NCBI GenBank assembly: GCA_963737065.1
Contig: CAVTRC010000001.1
Span: 544,001 to 608,000, forward strand
Source: Candidatus Eremiobacteria bacterium
Lineage (GTDB): Bacteria > Vulcanimicrobiota > Vulcanimicrobiia > Vulcanimicrobiales > Vulcanimicrobiaceae
Direction of reading: 5' to 3'
Length of the DNA: 64,000 bases
The notes under the pieces are model-generated. The model had not been told where the DNA came from, ran no database searches, and saw only the letters and a list, made by a program, of their open reading frames with translations. Below, in pieces: positions 20,030 through 39,663 of the stretch (the stretch's first letter is position 1; every line of letters starts with the position of its first letter). The translations under genes and the position numbers were made by a program.

Positions 20030-21298
20030 CTACGGCGATGACGTTGAGAGCGCCTGCGGTCGTGCGCACAGACGCGAGCTCATCGCCCAAACCAGCGCGA
20101 CGAGCAAAAAGTTTGCGACGAGCGAACTGCCGCCGTATGACAGAAACGGAAGCGTAATACCGGTCAAGGGAAACAGGCCGATCACACCACCGATGATGAT
20201 GAAGACCTGAAAGCCGAGCGTCGAGCCCATGCCAACCGCGAGCAACTTGCCGTACAGCGCCGGTTGTTCCGCACCTGCGCGAAGCATGCGACGTACGAGC
20301 ACGAGAAACACCGCAACGACCGCAAACGCTCCAATCAATCCGAATTCCTCCGAATACGCCGCGTACACATAGTCGGTTGCGACGTCGGGAATGAATCCCG
20401 GATGGCCTAAACCGAAACCGGTTCCAAAGAGCCCGCCTGCCGCGAGCGCATAATACGCCTGCGACGACTGGTACCCCGCACCGAGCGGATCGCTAAACGG
20501 ATCGTTCCACACCGCGATGCGCGTCTGCACGTACGGATAGTGATGCACGGCCCAAAAAACGACGACCGCGAAAACAACGATGCCGCCGAGCACGAGATCG
20601 ATTCGTCGCGTCGCAACGTAGAGCAGCGCAGCGAACGTTGCAAGCAGGAGGGTCGCCATGCCCAAGTCTCGCTGCACCACGAGAATCGCCATCGAGCTGC
20701 CCCACCCCAAAAACAGCGGTCCTAGATAGCGGAGATTGGCGCGAACCGACCACGGCCTGGAATTCGCGATAACGTCGGCATTTTCGGCAAGATACGCGGC
20801 GAGGAAAAATACGATGAAGAGCTTGATCAGTTCGATCGGTTCGTATTGAATCGAACCGATGCGAATCCACAGCCGCGCACCGTTGGCTTCTTGCCCGAAA
20901 ACGAGCAAGAGAATGAAGAGCAACAGCGAGGCGACAACCCACAAATATTTGTAAGCGGCAAATTTCCGGAAATGCGTAAAGAGCGGGCCCAGACCGATCG
21001 CAAGTACAAGTGAGACGAGCAGCCACCACTGTTGTTTCTGCGCAAGATCCGGCGAGAGACGCGCGACCAATGCAAGCCCGAGCGCGGAAAGCACGATCGC
21101 AATCGCCGGAATGATGTCGTCGCGAACGGCGTTGACCGGCTGCCACATAACCCAAAGCGCGGCGAGCGCCGCAAGCACGAGCCCGAGCCATGCGGGCCGC
21201 AACGCGCCGACGGGAGCGTACGACAGAATAAAACCGGCAATCACTAACGCGATTGCAACGGTGATCGCGCGCCGCGCGATCAGACCTACCTCAGCCAC
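20030..21298 (-). CDS. rodA: FtsW/RodA/SpoVE SEDS family protein
   Basis: NGARLWI, P.ELIK, QRDLG, GYQ, TDY, PLTGITLPFLSYGGSS. Confidence 0.9.
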   Translation of the reverse strand: MAEVGLIARRAITVAIALVIAGFILSYAPVGALRPAWLGLVLAALAALWVMWQPVNAVRDDIIPAIAIVLSALGLALVARLSPDLAQKQQWWLLVSLVLAIGLGPLFTHFRKFAAYKYLWVVASLLLFILLLVFGQEANGARLWIRIGSIQYEPIELIKLFIVFFLAAYLAENADVIANSRPWSVRANLRYLGPLFLGWGSSMAILVVQRDLGMATLLLATFAALLYVATRRIDLVLGGIVVFAVVVFWAVHHYPYVQTRIAVWNDPFSDPLGAGYQSSQAYYALAAGGLFGTGFGLGHPGFIPDVATDYVYAAYSEEFGLIGAFAVVAVFLVLVRRMLRAGAEQPALYGKLLAVGMGSTLGFQVFIIIGGVIGLFPLTGITLPFLSYGGSSLVANFLLVALVWAMSSRLCARPQALSTSSP

Positions 21299-22035
21299 GC
21301 AGTCGTCAACAGCAATCCAAGAACGAACGTCAGACCGGCAACGGTGCTTTGTATGCAAAGGTCCGGCCGTAGCGGTGCCTTCACCGCCGTTACGATTTCA
21401 TCTACAGCGCGATCGCCGTCGTCAAAGCGCACGACGAGCATGTGTTCGTTGACGCCCGCTTCCTCGACATGCGCGATGAGCGCGCGCCGGTCGACTTCAC
21501 CGCGCACACGATGTCCCATCAGGATCATGACGTCACCCGAATCAACCGCGACGCTCGATACGGACACGTCGAGCGAGGCGGCAGCGCCGAGCGCGCGTGA
21601 GAGCAGCGGTGTGGCGGCCTCCAGCGCATCTTCCGCCGTCAGCGCAGTAACGTCGCCCCGGTGTGCGAGATACGCGGCGGTGCCGCCGCTGTGAATGACA
21701 TACGCGTGTCCACGAACGACGAGCGTCGCGGTCAGCGAACAGCCGGCGGTAACGTAATCGTCATGCGATGCGCTGCGCGAAAAGATGTCGTCGTTCACAC
21801 GCGAGAGGACGGCGAGAACCGCCGTTGCGGCCGCCTGCGGCCGATCGATCGCGCGGCGGAACCGCTCGGCTTTCAGCCGTCGCTCGCACTCACCGCGCAC
21901 GCGCGCAAGGGTTGCGGGCGCCGCGGCGACGCCGTCGATCGTTCCGAAGCCCCGCGCAACCGCGAACAGCCAGGAGCGCGTCCCGAGCTGCAACGACAAA
22001 CACGACGCGCGATCACCACGAATCGCTACGTCCAT
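21286..22035 (-). CDS. PP2C/PstP-like protein lacking the catalytic aspartates (pseudophosphatase), C-terminal TM
   Basis: LFAVARGFG, GCSLTA, HSGGTAAYL, LTAED, LSRALG, GDVMILM; pstP position in the fha-rodA cluster. Confidence 0.7.
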   Translation of the reverse strand: MDVAIRGDRASCLSLQLGTRSWLFAVARGFGTIDGVAAAPATLARVRGECERRLKAERFRRAIDRPQAAATAVLAVLSRVNDDIFSRSASHDDYVTAGCSLTATLVVRGHAYVIHSGGTAAYLAHRGDVTALTAEDALEAATPLLSRALGAAASLDVSVSSVAVDSGDVMILMGHRVRGEVDRRALIAHVEEAGVNEHMLVVRFDDGDRAVDEIVTAVKAPLRPDLCIQSTVAGLTFVLGLLLTTAWLR

Positions 22036-22445
22036 GGACGCAATTTCTCCACGAGCAATCGAGTCGTACCCACATCGACTTGGTCTCCCTCGCGCAACTC
22101 GATGGCGCTCGTTAGCCGCCGTCCGTTGAGAAACGTGCCGTTGCTGCTGTCCAAATCGCGGACGAAAACCGTGCCGTTTTGCGTTTCAAGCCGCGCGTGA
22201 CGGCGGCTGACCTCCGGATCGGCAAGGACGAGCTGCGCGTCCTGCCCGCGTCCGATAACGAGCGGGCACGTCGCCTCGAACGCGCGCTCATTGCCGACTT
22301 CGAGCACGCGCAGCTGCGCTTGAACCGGTGTCAGCACGCCGCCTTCCTCGGCGACTCGCACACGGGGACGTGCTGCAACGATTGCGACGGCAAAGAGCGC
22401 GGCGACGATCTCGAGCGATCCCAGGCGCGCATGCGCCACGTTCAT
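22026..22445 (-). CDS. Membrane-anchored FHA domain protein (FhaB-like)
   Basis: N-terminal TM; IGR, VSRRHA, DLDSSNGTFLNG. Confidence 0.88.
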   Translation of the reverse strand: MNVAHARLGSLEIVAALFAVAIVAARPRVRVAEEGGVLTPVQAQLRVLEVGNERAFEATCPLVIGRGQDAQLVLADPEVSRRHARLETQNGTVFVRDLDSSNGTFLNGRRLTSAIELREGDQVDVGTTRLLVEKLRPWT

Positions 22446-23143
22446 TCGCGAGCCTCCAAACGCATCTGGGTGTTGCCGAACGTCAAGACGTCGCCCGAAA
22501 CCAAGCGGCGCGTTCCGGTGATACGTTGGCCGTTGACGAACGTGCCGTTGGTCGAGCCGAGATCGCTGACCGCGACGTCATCGTGCTTCACGTCAATGGA
22601 GGCATGCGTACGCGAGACGCTCGGATCGACGAGGAAGACATCACTCTCTTCGTGGCGGCCGATCGACGCGACGCCGTCGATGAAGTAGACACCGTACGCC
22701 GGCACGCCTTTGATCATACGTAAATGATAACGCTTCGGAGCCGCGAGCGCAGGGGCGTCGGGAATCGAAATCGTCACGTCGCTCGCGACCGCAACGTCGA
22801 CCATTCCGAGCGGAATACCGGGACGCGCCTGCATCTCGACACTCGGGCCACCGTCGAAGAAATAGACGCCGACGCGCGCGGCCATATCGCGCAGAAGCTC
22901 GGCCCACTCGCGCTCAAGATACGCGCGGTGCTCCGCGAGGCGCTCGAAGTCTTCTGCATTCATGTAGACAAGATACGAGCCCGGCGCGAGCAGATGCCCG
23001 TCCTGACCGCGCGTGCGCGCTTCCATCGTTGCAACGAGTTTCCGCGCGACTTGCGCGGGTTCGAGATCGCTCGGAAACGTTTTCGCAAACGTTCGCTCGA
23101 TGAACGCAGCACAAGCTTGTTCTATGCGCGCAAACCAGCTCAC
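22442..23143 (-). CDS. DUF3662 + FHA domain protein (FhaA-like)
   Basis: LEPAQVARKL N-terminal domain; IGR, VSRTHA, DLGSTNGT; alternative TTG start at 23152. Confidence 0.88.
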   Translation of the reverse strand: MSWFARIEQACAAFIERTFAKTFPSDLEPAQVARKLVATMEARTRGQDGHLLAPGSYLVYMNAEDFERLAEHRAYLEREWAELLRDMAARVGVYFFDGGPSVEMQARPGIPLGMVDVAVASDVTISIPDAPALAAPKRYHLRMIKGVPAYGVYFIDGVASIGRHEESDVFLVDPSVSRTHASIDVKHDDVAVSDLGSTNGTFVNGQRITGTRRLVSGDVLTFGNTQMRLEARE

Positions 23144-23167
23144 GGTAGACAACGAACCGGCAGTATA

Positions 23168-34741: not shown

Positions 34742-34981
34742 ATGCCAGAAAGCCGCAACTATGCCGTCGTTCTCGAACCCGACGCCGAATGCGGATACAC
34801 CGCCATCGTTCCCGCTCTCCCAGGCGTTGTTACCGAGGGTGACACGCTCGAAGAGGTCTTTGCGAACGTACGGGAAGCGATCGAGCTTTGTCTTGAAGAC
34901 CTCGCATCTCGAGGCCTAGATATTCCGGAGAGCGACACCGGCGCTCGGCTGGAGCGTATCGAAATACCAATCGCGAGCTAA
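34742..34981 (+). CDS. hicB: HicB family antitoxin
   Basis: Y.VVLE..GYTAIVPALPGVVTEGDTLEE...N.REAI. Confidence 0.9.
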   Translation: MPESRNYAVVLEPDAECGYTAIVPALPGVVTEGDTLEEVFANVREAIELCLEDLASRGLDIPESDTGARLERIEIPIAS

Positions 34982-34987
34982 TCCCGC

Positions 34988-35209
34988 GTGACGCGCTTGC
35001 CACGCGTCGATTCCACGGAAGTGCTGCGCAAATTGCGTAGCGCCGGCTTCGTCATAGTCGGTACAAAAGGCAGCCATGTTCGTCTCCGCAGCGCGACGGG
35101 CAAAGCTACGACGGTGCCACATCATGCAGGCAAGACGCTTAAGCCGAAAACCTTCGCAGCAATCCTGCAGCAGGCGGGTCTCACGGCCGACGAATTCCGC
35201 AAGCTCTGA
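34988..35209 (+). CDS. hicA: HicA family mRNA interferase toxin
   Basis: L...GF...KGSH, TTVPHH, TFAAIL.QAGL. Confidence 0.9.
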   Translation: MTRLPRVDSTEVLRKLRSAGFVIVGTKGSHVRLRSATGKATTVPHHAGKTLKPKTFAAILQQAGLTADEFRKL

Positions 35210-35699: not shown

Positions 35700-37871
35700 T
35701 CAGACTTCCGCGAGTTCGCGGTCCTCATGCGGCTCTTCGCCCGATTGGCCTTTTGCGAGCGATGAGACGTCGTGTTCTTTGTTCGCCGCGCATTCAAGTT
35801 GCACGACGCCGCCGCGACGCGTCTTCGCAACCACATAGCCGCCGCAGACCGGGCATGGTTCGGGAATGACGCGATCCCACGAGACGAAGTCGCACTTCGG
35901 ATAGTTCGCGCAACCGTAGAACGTCCGGCCCTTCTTCGAACGCCGCTCGACGATCATGCCGCCGTCTTTGGGACACTTCGCGCCGGTGTCTTTGACGATC
36001 GGTTTCGTCGTCTTGCACTCGGGATAACCGGTGCACGAAATAAACCGTCCGAAGCGTCCGGTCTTGATCACCATCGCGCGTTCGCAATTCGGACAGATCT
36101 CGTCCGTCGGTTCGTCCTTGATCTCCAGACGCGGCAGCTTCTTCTCCGCCTCCTCGAGCTCGGTCGAAAACGGACCGTAGAAATCGCGCAAAATGCGAAC
36201 CCAATCGTCTTCGCCGTCGGCGACCTTATCGAGGCTGCCTTCCATCCCGGCAGTGAACTTCAAATCGACGATGTCCTTGAAGTGCTCGGCGAGCAGGTCG
36301 TTGACCGCGGTGCCGATGTCGGTCGGTTTGAAACGCCGCTCTTCTTGCGTCACGTAACCGCGCGCCTGGATCGTGTCGACGATCGTTGAGTACGTCGAAG
36401 GACGTCCGATGCCGTTGTCTTCGAGCGACTTCACGAGCGTCGCTTCGGTGTACCGCGGCGGCGGTTCGGTGAAGTGCTGTTTCGGTTCGAGCTTCGAGCA
36501 GTCCAATGCATCGCGCTCGTGGAGTTCCGGCAATCGAATCTTCGCTTTACCCTTCACCGCGCCGCTGGTCTTCGCGACGTCCGCATCGGGTGCGCCATCA
36601 TCGTCGCGACCCTCTTCATACACCTTGGTGAAACCGGCGAACTTCACGACGCTGCCCGTCGCGCGGAACGTATACTCACGCGCCGCGATATCGACCGTCG
36701 TCTGATCGAGCACCGTCGCTGACATCTGCGACGCAACGAACCGCTCCCAGATCAACGTGTAGAGACGCAGTTCATCGCGCTTGAGCACGTGCGACACCGA
36801 AGCCGGCGTCCGGAACACCGAGGTGGGGCGAATCGCTTCGTGCGCGTCTTGAGCGCCTTCGCGAACCTTGTGAAGCCGGCCGCCGTGAAACTCTTCACCG
36901 TACGTCGCCGTGATGTATTCGCGGGCATGCTCGCGCGCCGCATCGCTGATGCGCGTCGAGTCGGTACGCATGTAGGTGATCAGGCCCTGCGTGCCCTCGT
37001 CGCCGCCGAGATCGACGCCTTCATAGAGCGCTTGCGCGACCTGCATCGTGCGCCGGACGCGCAGGCGCAACTTGCGCGACGCTTCTTGCTGGAGCGTCGA
37101 GGTTGTAAACGGAGCCGGCGCGTTGCGCTTGACTTCGCGCCGCTTGACCGACGAAACGGTGTAGTGCGCGCCGTCGAGCGCGGCCAGAACCGCATCCGCT
37201 TCTTCCTTCTTAGTAATCTCGTATCTCTCGCCGCGCCGCGCAACGAGTTCGGCGGGGAAGAGCAACGCCGGATCGCGATGGGTCGAAAGATGCGCCGTCA
37301 TCGTCCAGTACTCGCGTGGAACGAACGCCGCAATCTCGCGCTCGCGGTCGACGATCAGCCGCACGGCAACCGATTGGACGCGGCCGGCGGATAGACCGCC
37401 GCGAACCTTTGCCCACAGCAACGGTGAGATTTTGTATCCGACGAGACGGTCGAGAATGCGCCGCGCCTGCTGGGCGTTCACGCGATCCATGTCGATGTGA
37501 TGCGGGTGTTTCAGCGCGGCGAGTGCGGCGTCTTTCGTGATCTCGTGCAGCTCGATCCGCTTCGGATTTTCGAGCTTCAGCAGTTCGGCGAGATGCCACG
37601 CAATCGCCTCACCTTCGCGGTCGGGGTCGGTCGCGAGGTAGACGTCGCTCGCGCTTTTCACCGCGCTCTTGAGATCTTTGATAACGTCGCCTTTCCCCTT
37701 GATCGTAAGGTACTTCGGGCTGAAGTCGTTCTCGACGTCAACACCGAGCGTGCTCTTGGGAAGATCGCGAACGTGTCCAACCGACGCTTTGACAATATAG
37801 CGAGCCGGAAGAAACTTCTTGATCGTGCGGGCCTTGGTCGGCGACTCGACGATGATCAGGGGCTTTTTCAC
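35700..37871 (-). CDS. topA: DNA topoisomerase I with C-terminal zinc ribbons
   Basis: IVESPTKA, DPDREGE, SAGRVQS, ITYMRTDS, GIGRPSTY, CxxC ribbons. Confidence 0.97.
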   Translation of the reverse strand: MKKPLIIVESPTKARTIKKFLPARYIVKASVGHVRDLPKSTLGVDVENDFSPKYLTIKGKGDVIKDLKSAVKSASDVYLATDPDREGEAIAWHLAELLKLENPKRIELHEITKDAALAALKHPHHIDMDRVNAQQARRILDRLVGYKISPLLWAKVRGGLSAGRVQSVAVRLIVDREREIAAFVPREYWTMTAHLSTHRDPALLFPAELVARRGERYEITKKEEADAVLAALDGAHYTVSSVKRREVKRNAPAPFTTSTLQQEASRKLRLRVRRTMQVAQALYEGVDLGGDEGTQGLITYMRTDSTRISDAAREHAREYITATYGEEFHGGRLHKVREGAQDAHEAIRPTSVFRTPASVSHVLKRDELRLYTLIWERFVASQMSATVLDQTTVDIAAREYTFRATGSVVKFAGFTKVYEEGRDDDGAPDADVAKTSGAVKGKAKIRLPELHERDALDCSKLEPKQHFTEPPPRYTEATLVKSLEDNGIGRPSTYSTIVDTIQARGYVTQEERRFKPTDIGTAVNDLLAEHFKDIVDLKFTAGMEGSLDKVADGEDDWVRILRDFYGPFSTELEEAEKKLPRLEIKDEPTDEICPNCERAMVIKTGRFGRFISCTGYPECKTTKPIVKDTGAKCPKDGGMIVERRSKKGRTFYGCANYPKCDFVSWDRVIPEPCPVCGGYVVAKTRRGGVVQLECAANKEHDVSSLAKGQSGEEPHEDRELAEV

Positions 37872-37878
37872 GGGGTTC

Positions 37879-37908
37879 AGTATACTCCCGGGGTCAAGAC
37901 GGGGGCAA
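37879..37908 (-). promoter_or_regulatory. Putative topA promoter, leaderless transcript
   Basis: TTGCCC-N18-TATACT, then 7 nt to the GTG start; no SD. Confidence 0.65.
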
Positions 37909-37989
37909 ACGGGATTGGCTGCGCCCGATTCCGTCGCGGTCGGCCTTCGGCCGCGGTGCAGTTGCAAACCGACATCCCGTAAACACGAA

Positions 37990-38037
37990 ACGCGCGCGCG
38001 TGTATACGTGTGCGCGCACATGCGCGTACGCGCGCGT
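37990..38037. other. 48-bp perfect alternating purine-pyrimidine tract (Z-DNA-prone)
   Basis: acgcgcgcgcgtgtatacgtgtgcgcgcacatgcgcgtacgcgcgcgt checked base by base; ends form the inverted repeat aaacgcgcgcg/cgcgcgcgttt. Confidence 0.9.
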
Positions 38038-38066
38038 TTGCATGATTTTGAAAAATCCTTTATAGT
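38038..38066 (+). promoter_or_regulatory. Near-consensus sigma70 promoter of the basic repeat protein
   Basis: TTGCAT-N17-TATAGT. Confidence 0.75.
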
Positions 38067-38138
38067 GCGCTTAAAGCGCACGACGTCGTGCGCTGTCCAA
38101 GTAACGCTTATCGTCCCCCGGGGGACGAGGAGGAATGA

Positions 38139-38585
38139 ATGGACTCCGATACCATGACGAACGGCGACACGATGGGTGAAGCCAAAAAATCGCGCCGCAA
38201 ATCGAGCGGCCGTCGCAAAGCGGCCGGTGGTCGCAAGAAAACCTCGACACGGAAGTCGACGGGTGGACGCAAGAAATCAACCGGCGGACGTAAGAAGTCG
38301 ACCGGCGGACGCAAGAAGTCGACGGGTGGACGCAAAAAGTCGACCGGCGGACGTAAGAAGTCGACGGGCGGACGCAAAAAATCGACGGGCGGACGTAAGA
38401 AGTCGACGGGCGGACGCAAAAAATCGACAGCGGGACGTAAGAAGTCAACCGGCGGACGCAAAAAGTCGACCGGCGGACGCAAGAAGTCGACGCGCAAGAC
38501 CGGCGCACGTAAAGGCGGACGCAAAGCGGCTGGTGGGCGCAAAAAGGGCGCGCGCAAGGGCGGCCGTCGCAAGAAATCAGCGTAA
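38139..38585 (+). CDS. Highly basic histone-H1/protamine-like repeat protein (RKKSTGG)n
   Basis: GAGGAGG RBS, own promoter and terminator, repeat variation almost all synonymous in this frame. Confidence 0.85.
   Translation: MDSDTMTNGDTMGEAKKSRRKSSGRRKAAGGRKKTSTRKSTGGRKKSTGGRKKSTGGRKKSTGGRKKSTGGRKKSTGGRKKSTGGRKKSTGGRKKSTAGRKKSTGGRKKSTGGRKKSTRKTGARKGGRKAAGGRKKGARKGGRRKKSA
38250..38492 (+). repeat. 21-bp coding tandem repeat, 10 full plus 2 partial units
   Basis: cgy aar aar tcr acv ggy gga; one unit reads RKKSTAG. Confidence 0.95.
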
Positions 38586-38604
38586 CGCATAACACGACAA
38601 GCAG

Positions 38605-38636
38605 CGAGGACGACCATTCGGTCGTCCTCGTTTTTT
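38605..38636 (+). terminator. Intrinsic terminator
   Basis: cgaggacgacc-attc-ggtcgtcctcg followed by T6. Confidence 0.9.
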
Positions 38637-39663
38637 ATGCGCTGATTACAACGGGGCCGGCGGTGAGGTTCGGCGCTTTGCCGCCGTGTTCGTCAACCCA
38701 ATGGCACGCCGCAAAATGCCCGGCGCCGTACGCGTTGAATGCCGGCACCTCGGTTTTGCAGCGATCGAACGCAACGGGACAACGCGTGTGGAAACGGCAG
38801 CCCGAGGGCGGATTCACGGGCGAGGGAATGTCGCCGGTGAGTACGATGCGTTTCCGCCGCGTTTCCGTGTCCGGGTCGGGTATCGGAATCGCCGAAAGGA
38901 GCGCTTGCGTGTACGGGTGCAGCGGATTTTCGTAGAGCGAGTCGCGGTCCGCGAGTTCCACCAGCTTGCCGACGTACATCACCGCGACGCGCGTCGAGAT
39001 GTGACGAACGACCGAGAGGTCGTGCGCGATGAAGAGATATGTGAGGCCGAACTTCGCTTGCAGATCTTCGAGCAGATTGATGACCTGCGCTTGAATCGAC
39101 ACGTCCAGCGCCGAGACGGGCTCGTCGCAGACGATGAATTTCGGGTCGACGGCCAGCGCTCGCGCGACGCCGATGCGCTGCCGCTGGCCGCCGGAAAACT
39201 CATGCGGAAAGCGATTCGCGTGATACGGACGCAAGCCGACGAGCTGAAGCAGTTCGCGAACGCGATCGCCGATTTGTTTACCTTTTGCGAGACCGTGAAT
39301 GCGCAGCGGTTCCCCGACGATATCGCCGACCGTCATGCGCGGATTCAGCGAGGCGAACGGGTCTTGAAAGATGATCTGCATTTCGCGGCGCAGGCGACGG
39401 ACTTGCGATGCGTTCATCTTCGTAACGTCCTGGCCGTTGAAGCGAATCGCGCCTTTCGACTCGGTCAGCAGACGCAGAATCAGACGCCCGATCGTCGTTT
39501 TTCCGGAACCCGACTCACCGACGAGTCCCAGCGTTTCACCGGGCGCGATCGTGAAATCCACGCCGTCGACGGCTTTAACATCGCCAACGTGGCGCGATAA
39601 GAAGCCCGCGTGAATCGGGAAGTACTTGTAGAGATCGCGAACCTCGACGAGCGGCTGCGTCAC
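38635..39663 (-). CDS. oppF: Oligopeptide/dipeptide ABC transporter ATP-binding subunit (OppF/DppF)
   Basis: [32 protein letters not shown]. Confidence 0.9.

Follow-up and report, generated by a model that had tools for sequence, protein, structure and literature searches.

The window analysed here is a 64-kb stretch of a Candidatus Eremiobacteria genome (64,000 nucleotides; contig CAVTRC010000001.1, positions 544,001 to 608,000), and our subject is a gene at 38139..38585 that encodes a small, repetitive and strongly basic protein and stands divergently beside topA, the gene for DNA topoisomerase I. A preliminary description had taken its repeats (RKSTGG and RKKSTGG) for a polymer of modification sites resembling the tail of histone H3. 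Our knowledge of Eremiobacterota, bacteria abundant in soil and peat, comes mainly from metagenome-assembled genomes (MAGs), and our literature search, in the available text of the sources returned, found nothing on their chromatin (histone, nucleoid) or on such a polycation family. The features of the locus, in window coordinates, are as follows.

35700..37871, − strand: topA (DNA topoisomerase I; Toprim, Topoisom_bac and Zn-ribbon domains by Pfam), the divergent neighbour
37990..38037, no strand: tract of 48 nt in which purines and pyrimidines alternate without a break (Z-DNA-prone); it separates the two divergent promoters (topA and polycation) and abuts the −35
38037..38066, + strand: sigma-70-like promoter, TTTGCA, 18 nt, TATAGT (promoter scan; hexamers conserved in 5 of 5 aligned genomes)
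38065..38081, no strand: perfect 17-bp palindrome GTGCGCTTAAAGCGCAC, which overlaps the −10 end and the site where transcription is expected to start (almost unchanged across the 5 aligned genomes)
38111..38128, + strand: inverted repeat TCGTCCCCC/GGGGGACGA in the 5′ untranslated region (5′-UTR), abutting the Shine-Dalgarno sequence (read from the sequence; arms conserved in 5 of 5 genomes)
38128..38133, + strand: Shine-Dalgarno sequence AGGAGG, 5 nt before the ATG (read from the sequence; invariant in the 5-genome alignment)
38139..38585, + strand: coding sequence of the polybasic repeat protein, 148 amino acids, stop included (reading of the open reading frame, ORF)
38139..38180, + strand: acidic Met-rich leader, residues 1-14, MDSDTMTNGDTMGE, the sole sequence-specific conserved part of the family
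38250..38477, + strand: regular part of the repeat, RKSTGG followed by ten heptads, of which nine are RKKSTGG and one is RKKSTAG (repeat finding and translation)
38478..38582, + strand: degenerate basic tail, RKKSTRKTGARKGGRKAAGGRKKGARKGGRRKKSA, with units shared with the sister genome L001
38603..38640, + strand: intrinsic terminator, a 13-bp stem with 8 G-C pairs followed by a T run (terminator scan)

A polybasic repeat gene divergent from topA

The 148-residue protein consists of the leader, a short basic stretch, RKSTGG (residues 38-43), the ten heptads (residues 44-113) and the degenerate tail, which ends in RRKKSA. Translation thus reproduced the ORF, acidic leader, RKSTGG, nine RKKSTGG and one RKKSTAG units and RKKSA end given in the preliminary description, whose estimate of about 12 units is reasonable, the array having 11 regular units with degenerate ones on its flanks. 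Tandem Repeats Finder placed a repeat of period 21 at 38252..38491 (11.4 copies, 82% matches, score 319), and a six-frame search of the window found no second copy. The protein (K37 G34 R24 S18 T18 A9 M3 D3 N1 E1; 15.5 kDa, isoelectric point ~12) has no Val, Ile, Leu, Pro or aromatic residues, and 46% of its body is Lys or Arg, in strict 7-residue spacing. An AlphaFold2 model built on a 42-row alignment had a mean per-residue confidence (pLDDT) of 48.1 and no secondary structure; as predicted, the protein is intrinsically disordered, in line with the preliminary description.

Codon variation among the units points to selection on the peptide. Seven of the 21 nucleotide columns vary among the ten heptads, and six of these seven are third codon positions. 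Pairwise comparison gave 122 synonymous against 9 non-synonymous codon differences, counts that are not independent events, with all nine non-synonymous ones tracing to the single G-to-A unit that reads RKKSTAG. Of the 63 single-base changes that the consensus unit allows, only 17 are synonymous, and the probability that at least 7 of 8 variant states would be so is ~6e-4. The near-exclusively synonymous differences noted earlier are therefore borne out, and this pattern indicates that the peptide repeat is under purifying selection.

For comparison, genomes were scanned with TopA rather than the repeat as probe, so that the ortholog set is unbiased toward the motif, and the best 80 of 558 confirmed TopA relatives were retained as loci (L001 and so on). 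They come from Eremiobacterota/Vulcanimicrobiota-type MAGs (all but one record is labelled MAG) with TopA 70-91% identical to that of the window. Seventy-five of the 80 were usable, having at least 300 bp upstream of topA; the other 5 were too short. Looking beside topA in related genomes, a check already envisaged in the preliminary description, yielded polybasic orthologs throughout: all of the usable loci (75 of 75) have a divergent ORF, placed and oriented with respect to topA as in the window, that encodes an acidic leader followed by a polybasic body. Seventy-three were recognized by the leader pattern, and the other two are L069, which has a different acidic leader, and L079, which has a TTG start. 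The downstream ABC-ATPase neighbour is retained in just 49 of 65 loci, which makes topA the constant partner. A six-frame search of the 80 loci found no other basic-repeat segment.

Because the Shine-Dalgarno sequence, a promoter-like site and a terminator accompany an ORF whose ortholog lies divergent from topA in every usable locus, the sequence comparison indicates that the polybasic ORF is a real gene. These three signals, the palindrome and the 5′-UTR inverted repeat are all conserved in a DNA alignment of the window with four relatives (5 genomes). An artefact, in which a DNA tandem repeat merely looks translated and encodes no functional gene, could be suspected from the fact that three frames and the opposite strand are all open across the repeat. 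We regard it as next to impossible, given that 75 loci keep the frame, start, leader, stop, Shine-Dalgarno sequence and terminator even as the repeat DNA changes, and that variation is concentrated at third positions of the polycation frame. The third-position variation, with the conserved start, stop and Shine-Dalgarno sequence, likewise ruled out another frame or the opposite strand as the true gene.

Within the family, MDSD starts 54 of 74 proteins, 49 of which also have NG within the first 12 residues, giving the consensus MDSD-x-M-x-NG over ~14 residues. Its codons vary (D2 is GAC in 46 and GAT in 8; S3 is TCC in 33, TCG in 18 and TCA in 3; D4 is GAT in 49 and GAC in 5), and this synonymous variation indicates that the leader is conserved at the protein level. 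Lys and Arg make up 0.35-0.60 of the ortholog bodies (0.41-0.60 without L015, which contains a run of N), a C-terminal RKKKA or similar is common, and most complete orthologs have 98-175 amino acids. From these comparisons, the conserved features of the family are the acidic Met-rich leader, evenly spaced Arg/Lys clusters with small spacers and an RKKKA-like end. Several copies are imperfect: L011, L020 and L034 are cut by contig ends, L031 has one ambiguous residue, L042 stops after 49 amino acids and L056 has a frameshift-like tail.

Homology searches beyond the locus added little. A search with the leader alone (residues 1-40) returned 5 candidates, none significant. A HMMER search of the whole protein library gave 378 matches at E≤0.001, among them the ortholog P0008; the six top library matches examined comprised one ortholog (P0036) and five unrelated periodic low-complexity proteins (GGDKKPD and TPGRFDA repeats). 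Ten MAG records that carry the locus (L004, L005, L008, L036, L039, L044, L060, L061, L071 and L075) are titled as other taxa, namely Alphaproteobacteria, Acidiferrales/Acidoferrum, Babeliales, Dormiibacterota, Verrucomicrobiia and Rhodospirillales. Their TopA is 70-85% identical to that of the window, and the foreign titles are likely binning or labelling errors.

Turnover of the repeat unit and the likeness to histone H3

The repeat unit of the window protein is rarely shared by its orthologs. The window protein contains RKSTGG once and KSTGG ten times. Any STGG occurs in 6 of 75 syntenic orthologs (L009, L013, L014, L016, L065 and L070) and RKSTGG in none; counted among the 73 pattern-found orthologs, RKSTGG occurs in 0, KSTGG in 6 and ARKS in 6, and L069 and L079 also lack STGG. 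The nearest relatives by TopA (L002, 91%; L001, 89%; L074, 86%) all use RKKAAGG, so that Ser and Thr are replaced by non-phosphorylatable Ala in every interior unit. At the DNA level, the interior units of the window and its closest relatives differ at the first positions of two codons (TCG/ACC versus GCC/GCG). Other clades have units of the RKAVRKKV, KKTARKSAA and RKKATGT types. When mapped onto a 42-row TopA tree, the four types of body require no fewer than 10 changes, and the STGG type alone no fewer than 3.

Two comparisons bear on how the units change. L001, the sister of the window genome (support of 98 in the SH-aLRT branch test), has ST-type units only at its array edges, a pattern that fits an interior homogenized as a single unit expanded. 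L003 and L022 have near-identical TopA and polybasic proteins that are 62% identical (L003:4406-4768 and L022:4435-4803), with completely different repeat bodies, Val-rich RKAVRKKV type against RKKAAGG type; the L003 protein is 81% identical to that of L010 (L010:4445-4816), from another TopA clade. Such mismatches imply that whole bodies are sometimes replaced, and this pattern suggests either allele replacement or two old morphs. Across 15 orthologs with at least four RKKxxGG units, codon differences within arrays were 688 synonymous against 140 non-synonymous. Judged by these comparisons, each lineage's current unit is under selection and the unit itself is interchangeable; spacers and unit appear to turn over quickly through expansion, contraction, homogenization and allele replacement. 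Between sister genomes, then, Ser-Thr has become Ala-Ala in every interior unit with the charge spacing kept, a fast rewriting of a low-complexity protein.

RKKSTGG-type sequence also occurs outside the family. Seventeen of 22 repeat-sharing database matches carry a DUF6496 domain (PF20106), usually preceded by an unnamed N-terminal domain of ~80 amino acids. The matches with RKKSTGG-type linkers (P0001-P0006, P0009-P0011, P0013-P0016 and P0018-P0022) mostly combine N-terminal domain, repeat and DUF6496, P0021 is a hemerythrin with an RKKSTGG-type tail, and the named sources of such linker proteins are Candidatus Baltobacteraceae. DUF6496 is absent from the window protein, its KQAIAIG signature was found in neither the window nor the 80 loci, and a literature search on the domain returned nothing. 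Such sharing could reflect a common module or gene conversion between arrays.

The turnover bears directly on the preliminary description, which had seen in the repeat a K-S-T polymer probably convergent on H3 residues 8-13, phosphorylated, acetylated or methylated to regulate nucleoid condensation. Its basis is tangible: eleven K-S-T-G/A-G units are under purifying selection in the window genome, with the exact RKSTGG once and KSTGG ten times; the organism has Ser/Thr phospho-signalling, as the forkhead-associated (FHA) proteins at 22029..23152 show; and DUF6496 proteins, Candidatus Baltobacteraceae ones among them, have Ser/Thr-rich linkers of the RKKSTGG type. The orthologs do not sustain it. 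Homologs vary freely at the STGG positions (STGG is absent from 69 of 75), the sister L001 and the other closest relatives carry Ala-Ala in every interior unit, and the STGG type requires its at least 3 changes on the TopA tree, which argues against both a polymer of H3-like sites and convergence on the motif. Ten of the 11 units have an extra Lys relative to H3 8-13, a PDB sequence search (phmmer, all chains, E≤10) returned 3 matches and no histone, and Pfam gave the window protein no match to a histone family. Nor do the SET, GNAT or PknB partners that had been anticipated lie nearby: none was found among the 60 window ORFs (Pfam, E≤1e-5), where Pfam also detected no kinase and where the only phospho-signalling domains are those of the FHA proteins 15 kb away. 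ARKS arises in 6 of 73 orthologs purely from composition, which shows how easily H3-like strings form in basic Ser/Thr/Ala/Gly sequence.

We therefore consider an H3-like modification polymer very unlikely. Since RKKSTGG is this lineage's current unit, its likeness to H3 residues 8-13 is coincidental; on the ortholog comparison, the resemblance is a local accident of a fast-changing repeat, a short string match inside low-complexity sequence. What stands of the preliminary interpretation is a real, polybasic and predictedly disordered protein beside topA with a repeat under purifying selection. The case is cautionary, in that likeness to a famous eukaryotic motif dissolves on ortholog comparison.

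The control region shared with topA

The 267-bp intergenic region between topA and the polycation gene carries conserved promoter elements alongside the alternating tract. A promoter scan of the region gave 2 promoter-like sites, against 0.1 expected from shuffles. The 48-nt tract consists of 26 CG/GC, 16 CA/TG-type and 5 TA/AT steps; the next longest alternating run in the window is 16 nt, and the number of runs as long as 48 nt expected by chance is 7e-8. Tracts of 39-59 nt with different sequence occupy the same intergenic position in twelve relatives (L001-L008, L017, L022, L025 and L074), where the longest alternating runs elsewhere in the loci are 13-18 nt, and 24 of 73 loci have an alternating run of at least 20 nt there. 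In 10 of the 13 genomes (that of the window and these 12), the tract end falls within 1 nt of a −35-like TTTGCA, and in 12 of the 13 the distance from tract to ATG is 97-102 nt. A cruciform or hairpin (palindrome) reading of the tract was set aside, as folding energies in the 13 genomes were no better than those of alternation-preserving shuffles (z from −1.64 to +1.56). The features that persist are alternation and position, both characteristic of a Z-DNA-prone element that lies between divergent promoters. Transcription-driven negative supercoiling can flip such tracts into Z-DNA in vivo, and on this sequence pattern the tract may be a supercoiling-responsive element. Our literature search, in the available text of its sources, found no description of such an alternating tract at topA.

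Taken together, topA, the tract and the polycation gene could form a supercoiling-sensing module with feedback on topology, a scheme that we rate as unlikely. Divergent transcription would drive negative supercoils into the tract, which would flip to Z-DNA and gate the adjacent −35; feedback would arise if the acidic leader docked on TopA, or if the polycation stabilized the Z or condensed state. Some TopA enzymes carry basic C-terminal tails, and the module, if true, would be their trans-acting counterpart.

Further elements lie between promoter and start codon. The 17-bp palindrome could be a repressor operator or a 5′-terminal mRNA stem-loop, judging from its position. The 3′ arm of the 5′-UTR inverted repeat (9+9) extends over the first base of AGGAGG; L002 alters only the central bases of the repeat and retains the stem, and the element may act as an mRNA hairpin affecting translation or stability. 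An Rfam scan of 37700..38800 gave nothing at gathering score, and matches to mir-466 and mir-297 at 37980..38048 are artefacts of the alternating tract. On the opposite strand, the topA start was assigned to the GTG at 37871 from a tblastn match and the L079 ORF start. A −10-like TATACT precedes this GTG by 7 nt, and no Shine-Dalgarno sequence is evident (37871..37908, − strand), in a region conserved in relatives; topA may be leaderless, or its promoter mispredicted.

Elsewhere in the window, a HicB-like antitoxin and HicA toxin pair (34742..35209) lies just downstream of topA. At 20033..23152 stand an FtsW/RodA-family protein, one unassigned ORF and two FHA-domain proteins (one FhaA-like), a cluster that we take to resemble the actinobacterial cell-division phospho-signalling cluster.

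Possible functions and known counterparts

We favour, with a probability of roughly 0.6, the reading that the gene encodes a small disordered H1/Hc2-like polycation of a previously undescribed family that binds the nucleoid. The DNA binding that it proposes is inferred from analogy with known polycations and from the invariant topA linkage. Its spaced positive charges would make sequence-independent contacts with the DNA backbone, compacting or bridging the nucleoid in the manner of chlamydial Hc2, the tails of Pseudomonas AlgP/PhaF and the C-terminal domain of histone H1; the acidic leader would serve as a docking or self-inhibiting element, and the control region shared with topA would couple expression to DNA supercoiling. 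Of the nucleoid-condensing role put forward in the preliminary description, this much survives as the most plausible reading, by analogy.

Several observations count against the nucleoid reading. The window protein has no Pfam or NCBIfam match at E≤10, and the sub-cutoff matches of its orthologs to Hc2/H1-like models may reflect composition only. Its Gly/Ser/Thr-rich body (6% Ala, no Pro) is unlike the Lys/Ala/Pro tails for which DNA binding has been demonstrated, and such a polycation would bind any polyanion, including RNA and polyphosphate, rather than the nucleoid alone. The Ser/Thr pairs may also have some lineage-specific role, because purifying selection maintains them in this lineage and linkers of the RKKSTGG type turn up again in unrelated DUF6496 and hemerythrin proteins, some of which come from this bacterial group.

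Two other functions have to be weighed against it. A general polyanion binder, whether an RNA- or ribosome-associated chaperone or a tether of polyphosphate or polyhydroxyalkanoate (PHA) granules like AlgP and PhaF, is fairly unlikely. The charge pattern of the protein is not DNA-specific, and GGR/RKK units recall RGG-type RNA-binding low-complexity regions. AlgP, which has a similar H1-like tail, localizes to polyphosphate granules and spaces them, according to the available text of its description (PMC9239181). The granule specificity of AlgP and PhaF, however, comes from folded N-terminal domains, where the polycation family has just a 14-residue leader, and the invariant neighbour in the 75 usable loci is topA, a gene of DNA topology, rather than an RNA or polyphosphate gene.

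A dedicated TopA cofactor, whose leader docks on topoisomerase I while its basic tail holds DNA, would act in trans, comparably to the basic C-terminal tails that some TopA enzymes carry or to the TopoI-stimulating proteins HU and StIA. Universal topA synteny in the usable loci and a short conserved leader typical of a docking motif speak for it, as do two precedents, in the accessible portions of their sources: Mycobacterium tuberculosis HU stimulates TopoI via direct contact (PMC4176182), and pneumococcal StIA activates TopoI (bioRxiv 10.64898/2026.09.11.750838). Neighbourhood alone, however, is weak evidence for binding, and the divergent genes are not co-transcribed. A complex prediction for TopA (42-row alignment) with residues 1-40 of the polycation, run without controls, scored 0.00 and speaks neither for nor against the cofactor. 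We judge such a cofactor distinctly unlikely and retain the nucleoid-binding polycation as the preferred reading.

Family models place the protein near, and outside, known H1-like groups. Nine of 30 scanned orthologs matched Pfam PF07382 (HC2) at 13.7-34.9 bits, all below the gathering cutoff of 40, and L079 scored 12.8 bits. Eight of 30 matched NF038052 (Hc2) and 11 of 30 NF038053 (Burkholderia-type H1-like DNA-binding protein) at E≤1, with best ortholog scores of 31.6 and 33.8 bits, against curated cutoffs of 135 and 80 bits. Neither the window protein nor any scanned ortholog thus belongs to PF07382, NF038052 or NF038053. In a protein atlas, the nearest entries were two unnamed Vulcanimicrobiota clusters (0.92 and 0.90), followed by a cluster with HC2 in 28% of its members. 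The window protein does share the general traits of bacterial H1-like proteins, namely dense, evenly spaced Lys/Arg with small spacers and disorder, and repeat length and unit polymorphism with conserved flanks. It lacks their Lys/Ala/Pro-rich composition (body A 0.06, P 0.00, G 0.24, S+T 0.24); the orthologs L039, L066 and L071 are Lys/Ala-rich. An AT-hook has a G-R-P core flanked by basic residues, and the window protein, having no Pro, has no such core. The longer ortholog L069 (L069:3926-4435, − strand), with its different acidic leader, carries four GRPKGS motifs that we take to resemble AT-hook cores; a Pfam scan of L069 and L047 found no AT-hook family, and for L069 no family at all.

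Two traits of the family were not found described for known bacterial H1/Hc2-like proteins, the conserved acidic leader and the fixed place opposite topA, and in one clade the topA-opposed position is accompanied by the Z-DNA-prone tract at the promoter. The polycation locus is thereby a testable entry into a possible coupling of nucleoid proteins, topoisomerase I and non-B DNA.

Set beside known systems, the histone H3 tail (residues 8-13) shares with the window protein one exact RKSTGG, ten KSTGG, a basic and disordered character and a similar composition; unlike H3, the window protein has no histone fold and no Pfam or PDB histone match, and the motif is missing in 69 of 75 orthologs. Closer in kind are chlamydial Hc2 (HctB; PF07382, NF038052) and the Bordetella/Burkholderia Hc2-like proteins (NF038053), which are likewise stand-alone, basic and nearly all low-complexity. 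Chlamydial Hc1 and Hc2 are reported to compact the nucleoid, and we know of no topA linkage of Hc2. Hc2 is built of pentamers with two charges and mainly Ala, whereas the window protein has heptads with three charges and Ser-Thr-Gly-Gly, and Hc2 lacks an acidic Met-rich leader. In the available text on Hc2 (PMC2848022), its pentamers have evenly spaced Arg/Lys with Ala, Val, Thr or Pro as small spacers, and repeat number and units vary between close strains while the flanks are conserved, as in the polycation family.

The C-terminal KPAA tails of Pseudomonas AlgP and PhaF and the C-terminal domain of histone H1 are also disordered polycationic tandem repeats and a mutational hot spot, and the repeat peptides bind DNA, as shown for AlgP, according to the accessible part of the same source (PMC9239181). 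They differ in being Lys/Ala/Pro-rich and attached to folded domains, whereas the window protein combines Arg and Lys with Gly, Ser and Thr and has neither Pro nor a folded domain. The nucleoid-associated proteins that stimulate topoisomerase I (M. tuberculosis HU; Streptococcus pneumoniae StaR and StIA) offer the parallel of a nucleoid protein tied to TopA. As far as the available portions of these reports describe, HU contacts TopoI through a folded N-terminal domain and StIA forms oligomers, whereas the tie of the window protein to TopA is purely genomic, that of divergent neighbours.

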